Source of the DNA: Thermoproteota archaeon | Lineage (GTDB): Archaea > Korarchaeota > Korarchaeia > Korarchaeales > JAOZGB01 | Length of the DNA stretch: 64,000 nucleotides | NCBI GenBank assembly: GCA_037917685.1 | Contig: JAVCBU010000011.1 | Coordinates: 64,001-128,000 of the forward strand | Reading direction: 5' to 3' | The notes under the pieces: model-generated | Database searches by the model: none | What the model was told of the DNA's origin: nothing | Seen by the model: the letters and a program-made list of their open reading frames with translations, nothing else | Program-made: the position numbers and the translations under genes | In this document: positions 5,839-64,000 of the stretch, piece by piece | Layout: each line of letters opens with the position of its first letter | How positions within the stretch are numbered: the stretch's first letter is position 1

Positions 5839-6453
5839 TTAAGGGCTAATACTGGAATAGGGCTTTCTTACAGATATGCTTAGCCCTCCCGGATCTATGG
5901 GTACTATTACGGTTTCCCATTCTTCTCCTGTTATGGCATCTATGAATTCTTTCAGTATTCCCCCATGGGATATCACATTATGAGCAGCTAGAATTGAGCC
6001 TTCCGGCATTTTTGGCTTGAGAAGTTTTAGGTAGTCTATGTACTCCTCTTTCTTACCATCCAAGAAGGCAAAGTCTACGTGGAACTTTAGCTGTGGAATT
6101 ATATTCAGAGCGTCTCCATGTATTATTTTCACAATTCTTCTAACCAATGATGCCATGCTTTCATCTGTCACCTTCATTAAAGTTTTCTCCGCCTCGGCAT
6201 ACCTTAAAGTGTTCTTCTCTATTGTGTATACTTCGCCGCGCCCGCCCAGCTCTAATATTCCAGTAACTATCCACATCGTTGAACACCCTATCCCGGTTCC
6301 TACTTCAACTGCTTTGATCTCGCCCCTCGCCTCTAACAGTAGTTTAACTATGAGTTTTATGAGCCTTCCACAGCTCTCCGAGATGGGATAGGCTCCAAGG
6401 TCGAGGGATCTGCGGCAGAGCTCTCTTATAGTACTGTAGACCTCTGGTTTCAT
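5839..6453 (-). CDS. Class I SAM-dependent O-methyltransferase (caffeoyl-CoA OMT/YrrM-like)
   Basis: EVGTGIGCS motif I, GDA, FLDGKKEEY, AHNV. Confidence 0.85.
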   Translation of the reverse strand: MKPEVYSTIRELCRRSLDLGAYPISESCGRLIKLIVKLLLEARGEIKAVEVGTGIGCSTMWIVTGILELGGRGEVYTIEKNTLRYAEAEKTLMKVTDESMASLVRRIVKIIHGDALNIIPQLKFHVDFAFLDGKKEEYIDYLKLLKPKMPEGSILAAHNVISHGGILKEFIDAITGEEWETVIVPIDPGGLSISVRKPYSSISP

Positions 6454-8836: not shown

Positions 8837-9232
8837 ATGGAGGTTCAAGGAGCAGATTTAAGAGCATTAGGATATTGCGTAACATTTACCATAATAAATT
8901 ATACCCTGTCGCCAATATTTATCGTAACACCAAAATCAAGCCTAGGTGCAAGGCTGGCTATCGTAATACTTGCCTTCGCCGCGATGTATATGGTTGCAAG
9001 GATTTTCTATGGAAATCCATTCAAAAATAAGTATCAGTCACCCTATTTCGATAGCTTTATACATGTACTGGCTCTGATAGGTATTATCAGCATTTTCTCC
9101 CTCCCATTAATTATTCTTTTTGAGGGGGTAAATGTAGATATAAATGAAATCTATGTTAAAGCAAAACCTGCATTTGTGGATTCATGGGGGATGCCAAGGA
9201 GCCGCATGCTCAGACCGTCTACTATAGGATAA
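8837..9232 (+). CDS. Hypothetical membrane protein, 3' end possibly chimeric
   Basis: GGAGG RBS upstream; three hydrophobic segments; AT-rich. Confidence 0.5.
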   Translation: MEVQGADLRALGYCVTFTIINYTLSPIFIVTPKSSLGARLAIVILAFAAMYMVARIFYGNPFKNKYQSPYFDSFIHVLALIGIISIFSLPLIILFEGVNVDINEIYVKAKPAFVDSWGMPRSRMLRPSTIG

Positions 9233-61641: not shown

Positions 61642-63057
61642 CTACGGCCTTTTAATCTTCCATATGGGCCCATCGGGGGTATCTTCTATTATCACCCCTA
61701 CCTCGGCGAGCCTGCTCCTGATCATGTCACTTGCCTCGTATTGTTTCATCTTTCTCAGCTCCTCTCTCACCTCAACTATGGCATCTAGCAGCTTCTCAAC
61801 GAGCCCTCCACCATACTCCTCCCTACGCTGGAGTATTCCGAAGACCCAGCCCATTCTTCGAACGGTGTCGAGCACCTTTTCCTTAGCTTCCCCACTGATG
61901 CTTCTGCGGCTCGCCGCATACCTACCCATTTCCCTCAGCAGCATGTGAAGCTTTGAAAGCGCAAGTGGAGTGTTAAAGTCGTCATCCATCGCCTCCTCAA
62001 ACTCTGAAAGGAGTTTTTCAGCCTTCAATTCTAATTCCTCCCCTCCCTCCCCCTCCTCCAGCCTCCTGAACGAGTCTATCGTGTTGTACATACCTTCAAG
62101 CGTATCCCTAGCCTTTGCAAGATCCTCCTCCCTATAGTGTATAGGCTTCCGGTAATGGGTCTGGACTACGTAGAGCCTTATGGCTTCAGCGCCGTACTTC
62201 GAGAGTGCCTCCCTAACGGTTATAAAGTTCTTTAGAGACTTGGACATCTTCTCACCACCTATCATTAGCACTCCCGAGTGCAGCCAGTACTTGACGAATG
62301 GTTTTCTGCCCGTGTACGCCTCTGCCTGCGCGATTTCATTGGTATGATGCGGGAATATCAGCTCCGTAGCCCCGCCGTGAAGGTCGTACTGGGGTCCGAA
62401 AATAGTGATGGTCATAGCTGTGTCTTCAATGTGCCAGCCGGGCCTGCCAGGCCCCCATGGACTATCCCAGTATGGCTCTCCCGGCTTGGCGGACTTCCAA
62501 AGGGCAAAGTCTAGGGGGCTCTTCTTCCTAGGGTCCGGCTCTATTCTATGCTTCTTCAGATCCTCAAGCCTCATCCCGGAAAGCCTAGTGTAGTCTGGAA
62601 ACTTTGGCACGTGGTAGTAGACATCTCCATCAACCTGGTAGGCATACCCCTTCTCGATCAAGCCCTTAACCTGCTCTATCATCTCGGGGATGTAGTCCGA
62701 CGACTTCGGGAAGAGGTTAACATTCTGTTTAACCCCTAGGGCCTCCATGTCCTCATAGAATCTCTCCAAGTACAGGCTTGAAAGCTCGTCCCAGCTCATT
62801 CCCCGCTCCCTAGCCCTCCTTATAATCTTGTCATCGATGTCCGTAACATTCTGAACATAGAACACCGAGTACCCTCGGTAGCGGAGCCACCTAACAATCA
62901 CGTCGAAGTTTATATAGGTCTTGGCATGGCCCAGGTGTGCATCATCATAAACAGTCTGGCCGCAGACGAACATGTTTACACGTCGTCCCCTGAGAGGGGT
63001 GAACTCCTCCTTACGCCTGGTAAGCGTATTATAAACCCGCAACACAATAGAAACCAC
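61642..63057 (-). CDS. cysS: Cysteine--tRNA ligase
   Basis: YNTLTR, CG.TVY, HLGH, DFALWK, PGRPGWHIE, FPHH.NE, KMSKS, MDDDFNT. Confidence 0.96.
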   Translation of the reverse strand: MVSIVLRVYNTLTRRKEEFTPLRGRRVNMFVCGQTVYDDAHLGHAKTYINFDVIVRWLRYRGYSVFYVQNVTDIDDKIIRRARERGMSWDELSSLYLERFYEDMEALGVKQNVNLFPKSSDYIPEMIEQVKGLIEKGYAYQVDGDVYYHVPKFPDYTRLSGMRLEDLKKHRIEPDPRKKSPLDFALWKSAKPGEPYWDSPWGPGRPGWHIEDTAMTITIFGPQYDLHGGATELIFPHHTNEIAQAEAYTGRKPFVKYWLHSGVLMIGGEKMSKSLKNFITVREALSKYGAEAIRLYVVQTHYRKPIHYREEDLAKARDTLEGMYNTIDSFRRLEEGEGGEELELKAEKLLSEFEEAMDDDFNTPLALSKLHMLLREMGRYAASRRSISGEAKEKVLDTVRRMGWVFGILQRREEYGGGLVEKLLDAIVEVREELRKMKQYEASDMIRSRLAEVGVIIEDTPDGPIWKIKRP

Positions 63058-63196
63058 CCTCCAGCCATAAAGTGCAGGGCTACTTATTAAACTTTACATA
63101 ATTCCTAGCTAAGGGTGACATTTCAACATGCTATGCCAACATCTCACAGCCTGTGAAGAATGTTAGCTGTCCACCTCCACAACCTGGGTAGGCTTT

Positions 63197-64000
63197 CTAA
63201 CAATCGTTTGTTCTGGGATTGTTAATCCCCACTTTCCATGCGAGGAGGAGTATGAGGATCAGACCCATAGCGGACATAGCTATAACGACATCCCTAGCAC
63301 TCCGCAACCTGCCTCCAGAGGCTTGGCTGGGCTGGGTTATGGTGGGAGTCCCAGCAACCTCCGAGCTAACTCCGTATATCGGCCTGCCACCATACACATC
63401 TTCCAAGTACTTTACAAACACGTCGACATAGGAGATGTTTAGGAAGACAGCCTCCTCAACTTTAAGGATGAGTTTTAGACGGTAGAGTAGATAGTCACAT
63501 GTTGCAACTTTAACAAAAAGCAACACTAAAACAGCAATAAAAACGTTTTAGACGGTAGAGTAGATAGTCACATGTTGCAACCATGTAGGATTTGCCGTCA
63601 ATTATTAAGCTTCCGTTCGTAAGCATGCCACCCTTCACACCGGAGAAGCAGTATCGGGAAAGCAGTCTCTTAAGGGCCTCACCCCTCAGCTTAACTAGTA
63701 CCACAGTGTTAGGGAAGGGGAAGACTCTGAGAACATCCTCCATGTCTATCTCCCCCTCGCCTATGGCTGCCCTTGTCCCCCCCATATTGTAGAACCCTAG
63801 GTCCGCACCCGTATACCATCTCATGGCGTCAGCCATTAGAAGGCAGAGGTCGTGCTTTCCCAGGGTTTTACCCGCATATCCGACTCGCCGTGAAAGGTAG
63901 CCTGACAGGTTCGCCTCGAACACTTCAATTATTCCCCTAATTCTCTCATCAGCCGCTATGGGAGGGCTTTCAGCTTCTAGGAGGCTGCTTTCATCCATGT
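63197..64000 (-). pseudogene. Membrane-anchored 5'-nucleotidase (C-terminal domain; 5' part outside window), frameshifted by a 73-bp insertion
   Basis: ADA.R...GAD..F.N.GG.R, V.PFPN, Y.VAT.DYL; C-terminal TM; removing 63509-63581 restores one frame. Confidence 0.85.
63472..63581 (-). repeat. Repeat-spacer-repeat unit: 37-bp exact direct repeats around a 36-bp insert (CRISPR-like geometry)
   Basis: Minus-strand repeat GTTGCAACATGTGACTATCTACTCTACCGTCTAAAAC at 63545-63581 and 63472-63508; insert 63509-63544. Confidence 0.92.

Follow-up and report, generated by a model that had tools for sequence, protein, structure and literature searches.

Off-target spacer integration is a known activity of the proteins that build CRISPR arrays. 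In E. coli, over-produced type I-E Cas1-Cas2 was found to integrate spacers off target and thereby to form neo-CRISPR arrays, and 'circumstantial evidence' of off-target integration in two other species is also mentioned (Nivala, Shipman and Church 2018, Nat Microbiol, via bioRxiv 10.1101/148544). Two other papers also deal with neo-CRISPR loci (PMC6698737; PMC7054753). The present analysis concerns a similar unit, 110 bp long, that interrupts a 5'-nucleotidase gene in an uncultured archaeon. The unit lies in a stretch of 64,000 nt, the whole of which is referred to as the window (G000:C7:64001-128000), on contig C7 of genome G000, a 1.81-Mb metagenome-assembled genome (MAG) of 22 contigs with an estimated completeness of 95% and contamination of 3.24%; contig C6 of this genome carries an archaeal small-subunit rRNA gene. 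This unit is very probably the footprint of off-target spacer integration by the archaeon's own Cas1-Cas2.

The E. coli case and the present one share a spacer-length insert at a non-CRISPR site, a target duplicated over the length of the cognate repeat, and a repeat-spacer-repeat composed of ordinary DNA. They differ in that the events described here are natural, belong to an uncultured archaeon with a Csa1- and Cas4-containing adaptation module, and follow a 37/36 geometry; in addition, one event knocks out a gene, and its sister event has a natural empty site. Related behavior is known from the test tube. For example, in vitro integration by P. furiosus Cas1-Cas2 also occurs at sites outside CRISPR that have features in common with repeats (PMC6698737), the type I-A Cas1-Cas2 of S. 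solfataricus need host factors for specificity (PMC5815122), and T. profunda Cas1-Cas2 likewise perform off-target integration in vitro (PMC13769266). In these three reports, as is proposed for the present case, the integrase alone is promiscuous, the off-target sites are repeat-like, and the enzyme sets the spacing of the attacks. Whereas those experiments were plasmid assays with purified proteins, the unit in the window is a natural chromosomal allele, either fixed or at high frequency.

Two further phenomena invite comparison. Off-target acquisition is one of three origins proposed for isolated arrays (10.64898/2026.04.27.721218, citing Shmakov 2020, CRISPR J). Isolated arrays resemble the present unit in being array-like and remote from the cas locus, with off-target acquisition as a proposed origin; unlike it, they usually contain several repeats and are found by CRISPR detection tools, whereas here the origin can be read from a repeat made of coding DNA and from an intact relative. 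In another instance, spacers are acquired ectopically inside existing arrays, e.g., in S. thermophilus (PMC5338259). There, the spacer is again integrated away from the leader-repeat junction; however, the target is a genuine internal CRISPR repeat, not unrelated genomic DNA. Clear natural cases that still reveal what the site looked like beforehand were scarce in the literature searched, and similar single cases may stand in the supplements of the isolated-array survey. The phenomenon itself is already known; what is new is a natural instance, and the genome that harbors it contains a second event together with two older candidates.

The unit comprises three parts:

63472..63508, no strand assigned: neo-repeat copy 1, the duplicated 37-bp target, which is native minus-strand coding DNA for VATCDYLLYRLK, a motif present once in the related protein P0002

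63509..63544, no strand assigned: insert of 36 bp, the length of a spacer, with 25% G+C and without counterpart elsewhere in the genome

63545..63581, no strand assigned: neo-repeat copy 2 of the duplicated 37-bp target, an exact 37-nt duplicate

The original prediction, made from the letters of the window, had described a 37-bp exact duplication around a 36-bp insert with 9/36 G+C; its coordinates, lengths and base composition were all reproduced, and its minus-strand reading of the insert, VFIAVLVLLFVK, is correct on inspection of the sequence. The two 37-mers are 100% identical at a start-to-start spacing of 73, so that the net addition is 73 bp (36 inserted and 37 duplicated). Because the bases bordering the copies differ on both sides (A/C before, T/C after), the duplication is exactly 37 nt. 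The G+C content of the insert compares with 50% across about 900 nt of flank. No further site for the 37-mer was found in the 1.81-Mb genome at up to three mismatches, a reversed control also giving 0 matches. Tandem duplication by slippage was rejected, since the insert has no other match longer than 14 nt in its own genome. In insertion sequence (IS) elements, transposons and casposons, too, staggered strand transfer leaves the insert between direct repeats of the target. Their target duplications are known to span 2 to about 15 bp, and their inserts are hundreds to thousands of bp long with terminal inverted repeats, whereas here 37 bp are duplicated around 36 bp in which no terminal inverted repeats were seen on reading the sequence. 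With an insert that is also single-copy, an IS element or a miniature inverted-repeat transposable element was rejected as well.

The unit splits in two a minus-strand gene that encodes a Metallophos and 5_nucleotid_C protein:

63510..64000, minus strand: N-terminal gene fragment with its 3' end within the window (Metallophos 4.3e-07, 5_nucleotid_C 1.4e-18)

63197..63508, minus strand: stranded C-terminal gene part of about 100 amino acids with a hydrophobic C-terminal tail, matching P0002 residues 417-508 (E 1e-21)

The N-terminal frame has 450 amino acids in all and reaches C7:128862, outside the window; it ends with ...YMVATCDYLLYRLK, after which come 11 residues read out of frame and then a stop that falls within the insert. 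The C-terminal part, still open but shifted in frame relative to the N-terminal part, restarts at VATCDYLLYRLK-LILKVEE... and continues for about 90 further residues up to the hydrophobic tail. In a collection of 5.8 billion proteins, the closest protein besides the window's own is P0002 (516 amino acids, intact), which is 75% identical to the N-terminal part and runs uninterrupted across the site, ...YRVATCNYLLYRVRFDVNIEK..., with one copy of the motif. Removal of 73 bp in silico yielded a single 532-amino-acid frame that aligns to P0002 residues 2-508 at 67.5% identity (E 0). Since P0002 reads through with one motif copy and the 73-bp removal gives one frame, the duplicated DNA is native coding sequence, in agreement with the proposal that it encodes the VATxDYL motif of a 5'-nucleotidase and that deletion restores the frame. 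The event is a 73-bp insertion that frameshifts this gene, and the use of pre-existing host DNA as its target is seen at the protein level through P0002. At the DNA level, no ortholog that could represent an empty site was found in 40 relatives, 46 pattern matches in metagenome contigs included 0 relatives, and genome contigs yielded only relatives 28-35% identical. The gene fragments have not decayed further and the 37-mer copies are identical, which indicates a recent accident.

The presence of the unit in real DNA was checked with k=31 Logan contigs from two public runs, X1 and X2, which contain 95% of the words sampled from window positions 62600-64000; a third run, X3, contributed no contigs here, and none of the runs with this stretch is on record as RNA. 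A 96-nt unitig corresponds to 63479-63574, i.e., the whole insert and 30 nt of each copy, with 0 differences and a depth of 279 in X1 and 191 in X2. For comparison, the depth of the left flank is 331 (X1) and 217-284 (X2), that of the right flank 388 (X1) and 270 (X2), and that of the 37-nt repeat unitig 600 (X1) and 426 (X2). The ratio of insert unitig to left flank, 0.84 in X1 and 0.68-0.88 in X2, is within noise, since left flank and insert in X2 add up to a depth that differs by about 10% from that of the repeat. A 37-nt repeat is not resolved at k=31. The depth of the insert unitig rules out a rare chimera, and the adaptor letters reported at 63215 and 63591 bear no relation to the insert sequence. 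An adaptor or chimeric origin, which the original prediction had named as its own possible undoing, was therefore not upheld, the insert standing near flank depth. Both runs serve to check how the stretch was assembled; they do not count as independent evidence drawn from a second sample. Two single-base differences were seen next to the unit. Position 63583, two bases outside copy 2, is polymorphic (A/C) in the public runs, with C at 242/630 of the depth in X1; on the minus strand, the variant changes Met to Arg, which is the P0002 residue. At 63627, all contigs have A and the MAG has G, a fixed difference.

The machinery that could have produced this structure is encoded on contig C9. Cas1 matched one locus in G000 (2.8e-82 and 3.4e-83), with the gene order cas3', cas2, csa1, cas1, cas4 and profile scores of 4.4e-16 for Cas2, 2.5e-54 for Csa1 and 7.6e-35 for Cas4. 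Upstream of this adaptation operon lie a Csa3/CasR-like regulator and four open reading frames (ORFs) that match no family and that, we infer, may be a divergent type I effector; the other half of C9 carries a type III module with Cas10, Csx7-type RAMPs and Csx10. Arrays are found at both ends of C9, and a third at C9:1164-1348. The canonical repeat is 37 nt long and reads GTTTCAAAAG...ATTGAAAG, oriented away from AT-rich leaders; seven exact copies and one single-mismatch copy are present, all on C9. Of the canonical spacers, four are complete, with lengths of 36, 37, 37 and 37 nt; another one, truncated where the contig ends, has at least 36 nt. Thus, the duplication equals the cognate repeat in length (37 nt vs 37 nt), the insert falls within the cognate spacer range (36 nt vs 36-37 nt), and the MAG also carries the genes for Cas1 and Cas2, which lie on another of its contigs. 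Cas1 and arrays of about this geometry were what the original prediction had expected the genome to contain; they are there, along with Cas2, Csa1 and Cas4. Its remark that the window lacks cas genes stands for Cas1, the one that was looked for, whose sole genomic match is on C9. The tetranucleotide correlation of C9 to the large contigs, 0.895, is typical for contigs of its size in the bin.

Some spacers acquired by this system are directed at an element from its own bin. In the array at the end of C9, the two spacers nearest the leader match contig C8 (37/37 and 34/35), with protospacers at 6257-6293 and 9019-9053 that are both preceded by TCA. Contig C8 (9341 bp) is a tetranucleotide outlier (r 0.35 vs 0.79-1.00 for 19/21 other contigs), its ORFs run in one direction, and 8/10 of them match no Pfam family; C8 probably represents a virus or plasmid that was placed in the bin of its host. 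A second tetranucleotide outlier, C5 (45 kb, r 0.50, G+C 0.517), may be foreign or mis-binned, and no spacer matches it. Within a comparison set of 43 genomes of the phylum, G000 included, the canonical repeat occurs at up to three mismatches in 1/43, namely G000, and an exact search of metagenome contigs returned 0 matches. Two other sites look like array remnants: next to the type III module, an isolated copy of the canonical repeat with a single mismatch (C9:4606-4642), and a 20-nt repeat fragment adjoining AT-rich leader-like DNA (C14:273363-273382).

The duplicated target in the window resembles the canonical repeat mainly where integration would take place. Without gaps, 16/37 positions are identical (p 0.03), and over the terminal 10+10 positions 12/20 match (p 0.004). 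The half-sites GTTTTAGACG (top) and GTTGCAACAT (bottom) each match a repeat end (GTTTCAAAAG or CTTTCAATCC) at 7/10, and their sum of 14 is reached by a fraction of 3.2e-4 of 200,000 random 37-mers taken from G000 as the null, so that both presumed attack sites show likeness to the repeat (7/10 + 7/10, p 3.2e-4). In a gapped alignment there is no homology to the repeat, which suggests a look-alike site and not a decayed repeat. On the leader side of the first array, at C9 about 566-590, about 17-19 matches with one indel to the first 23 nt of the window 37-mer were noticed by eye; this likeness was too weak to be listed by BLAST and may be chance.

A scan of G000 for direct repeats (at least 28/30 matches, spacings 35-300), of the kind that the original prediction had recommended for further 37+36+37 units, listed 24 places: 4 canonical array segments, 11 tandem or near-tandem repeats in which the block is about as long as the period, and 9 interspaced non-CRISPR pairs. 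The spacing of 4/9 interspaced pairs is 72-74, the array period, giving a binomial probability of 1.9e-6 in a post hoc test. Beyond the window, one of these is a second exact unit:

C6:167536-167644: 37+35+37 unit in the divergent intergenic region between TFB-like and Sm-like genes

At the corresponding site, the same-genus genome G001 contains one copy of the 37-mer (1 mismatch) and no insert; the alignment gap runs to 73 columns, of which one reflects a T run that differs by a single base, leaving 72. The G001 locus is a natural empty site and marks the C6 unit as an independent second event. The inserts on C7 and C6 are unrelated to each other.

The remaining two places at the array period have diverged copies:

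C14:274414-274524: candidate older unit of about 37+37+37, period 74, downstream of an AbrB/VapC-like pair; the copies differ by four transitions

C9:881-1065: three diverged copies of 37-39 nt, period 72-74, with two 35-nt inserts, between two canonical arrays

The C14 pair, with an insert of 37 nt and 35% G+C, is possibly an older off-target integration. The C9 copies are unrelated in sequence to the canonical repeat and represent either a neo-array to which a second spacer was added or what is left of a different repeat family. Neither counterparts nor empty sites for the C14 and C9 units were found in the 43 genomes, and both stay candidates. Exact searches of viral contigs with the C6 35-mer and the C14 37-mer inserts gave 0 matches. 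Degenerate canonical repeats were rejected as the origin of the four units with a period of 72-74: their alignments scored 2-5, inside the null distribution (mean 3.4, 95th percentile 6).

The following course of events would account for the unit in the window. The Cas1-Cas2 complex, whose genes lie together with csa1 and cas4 on C9, would have carried a 36-bp prespacer and captured the site in the 5'-nucleotidase gene, both ends of which resemble the ends of the cognate repeat. Two strand-transfer attacks would then have been made 37 bp apart, the repeat length that the enzyme normally measures, and gap repair would have duplicated the 37-bp target on each side of the insert. The outcome is a repeat-spacer-repeat of non-CRISPR DNA, in which the 73-bp frameshift truncates the enzyme, with loss of the C-terminal part and its hydrophobic tail. 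The geometry, the Cas proteins and the second unit thus support the earlier suggestion of an off-target adaptation event that knocked out a gene. The description of the unit as a nascent array holds for its repeat-spacer-repeat structure; as an array, it is probably not functional.

Several observations weigh against off-target integration as the source of the unit. The insert contains 25% G+C vs 51-59% in five canonical spacers (19-22 G+C of 36-37 nt), which argues that it does not come from a C8-like element. No protospacer for it was found in phage and plasmid records, its own genome or the 43 genomes of the phylum; exact scans of viral and metagenome contigs did not include it. BLASTN gave chance-level matches only, both against 50,697 phage records (best E 0.4, bacterial hosts) and against 72,556 plasmid records (best E 0.03, bacterial hosts), and the phylum set contained nothing longer than 22 nt (best E outside G000 0.026). 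Without a protospacer, a foreign origin and any protospacer adjacent motif (PAM) are unproven, as is the viral origin that had been suggested for the insert from its sequence. The likeness of the target to the repeat is modest overall: its gapped alignment is within the null (score 5 vs 95th percentile 6), in the C6 target, just one of the half-sites is similar to the repeat (7/10, p 0.02), and the C14 and C9 candidates are without any end likeness, while the significance tests were devised after the data had been seen. Only four complete canonical spacers were assembled. The cas locus is on another contig of a MAG with the contamination given above, and the linkage rests on binning and tetranucleotide correlation. 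Finally, X1 and X2, which come from two studies, are near-equal in size and agree in their unitig layout; they may represent a single data set or the source of the MAG itself. The finding is thus limited by the missing protospacer, the contig-level data and the MAG context.

The strongest competing explanation is an insertion independent of CRISPR, either by a very small mobile element with a long target duplication or through filler DNA at the repair of a staggered break, with a coincidental geometry. The absence of a detected protospacer or PAM and the base composition of the insert fit such an origin. So does a rejected candidate at C1:381603-381693, an exact 37-nt repeat at a spacing of 54 in a hexapeptide-repeat (LbH) gene, which shows that such a repeat can arise without integration; it is native, as the ortholog in G001 is equally long, shares its architecture and aligns without a gap, and its length of 37 is a coincidence. 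Against this explanation, the unrelated inserts on C7 and C6 do not derive from one mobile element, and IS elements and casposons are not known to duplicate more than about 15 bp. Coincidence would also have to produce two exact 37-bp duplications with 35-36-bp inserts in a host with a 37-nt repeat and 36-37-nt spacers, an enrichment of interspaced pairs at a period of 72-74, and a target whose ends resemble those of the repeat. A CRISPR-independent insertion is therefore considered unlikely.

Selection for function, whether as a working one-spacer mini-array or as a programmed off-switch of the nucleotidase, is more improbable still. The repeat-spacer-repeat design would suit such a role, a position inside a transcribed gene means that the unit would be transcribed, and the plus-strand copy end GTTGCAAC matches the canonical 3' end ATTGAAAG at 5/8. 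However, a functional array is recognized by its repeat family and its leader or promoter, and alignment of the neo-repeat with the canonical one stays within the null, nor was a leader evident by eye at the unit. On these two grounds, repeats of unrelated sequence and the lack of a visible leader, the unit is probably not a working array. Rfam CRISPR-DR gave no match for it and likewise none for the canonical arrays, and is thus uninformative. In addition, none of the other genomes of the phylum set contains a unit like that of the window, and the lack of further gene decay and the identity of the copies suggest a recent accident rather than a maintained element. Least likely of all, and highly improbable, is an assembly or library artefact (a chimeric read, an adaptor or a mis-join at a short repeat) absent from the cells: a fragmented MAG, adaptor read-through nearby with loose ends at 63215 and 63591, and Logan unitigs that overlap each copy by 30 nt, one below the 31-nt bridging rule, leave some room for it, but the depths of the insert and repeat unitigs, the unrelated adaptor letters and a like unit on another contig with a natural empty site in a relative all speak against it.

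Off-target integration, known from over-produced E. coli Cas1-Cas2 and from test tubes, is invoked to explain orphan arrays. With off-target integration by the resident Cas1-Cas2 as the preferred reading, the unit in the window offers a natural measure of the integrase's 37-bp ruler on non-repeat DNA, as well as a view of the repeat-end bases that suffice for capture (N|GTT.CAA-like half-sites). The knockout of a secreted nucleotidase exemplifies an autoimmune-like cost of adaptation. The two empty sites provide defined substrates for the biochemistry of a Csa1/Cas4-type adaptation module from an uncultured archaeon. It is possible, though less likely than not, that several stages of the de novo birth of arrays are preserved in this one genome, from the fresh units on C7 and C6 through the older pair on C14 to the three-repeat locus at C9:881-1065. 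If the latter is indeed a two-spacer neo-array, a neo-repeat was reused as an integration target. If the series as a whole is real, the Csa1/Cas4-type integrase would be unusually promiscuous in vivo, and off-target integration would both burden adaptation with recurrent mutations and genuinely supply new arrays.

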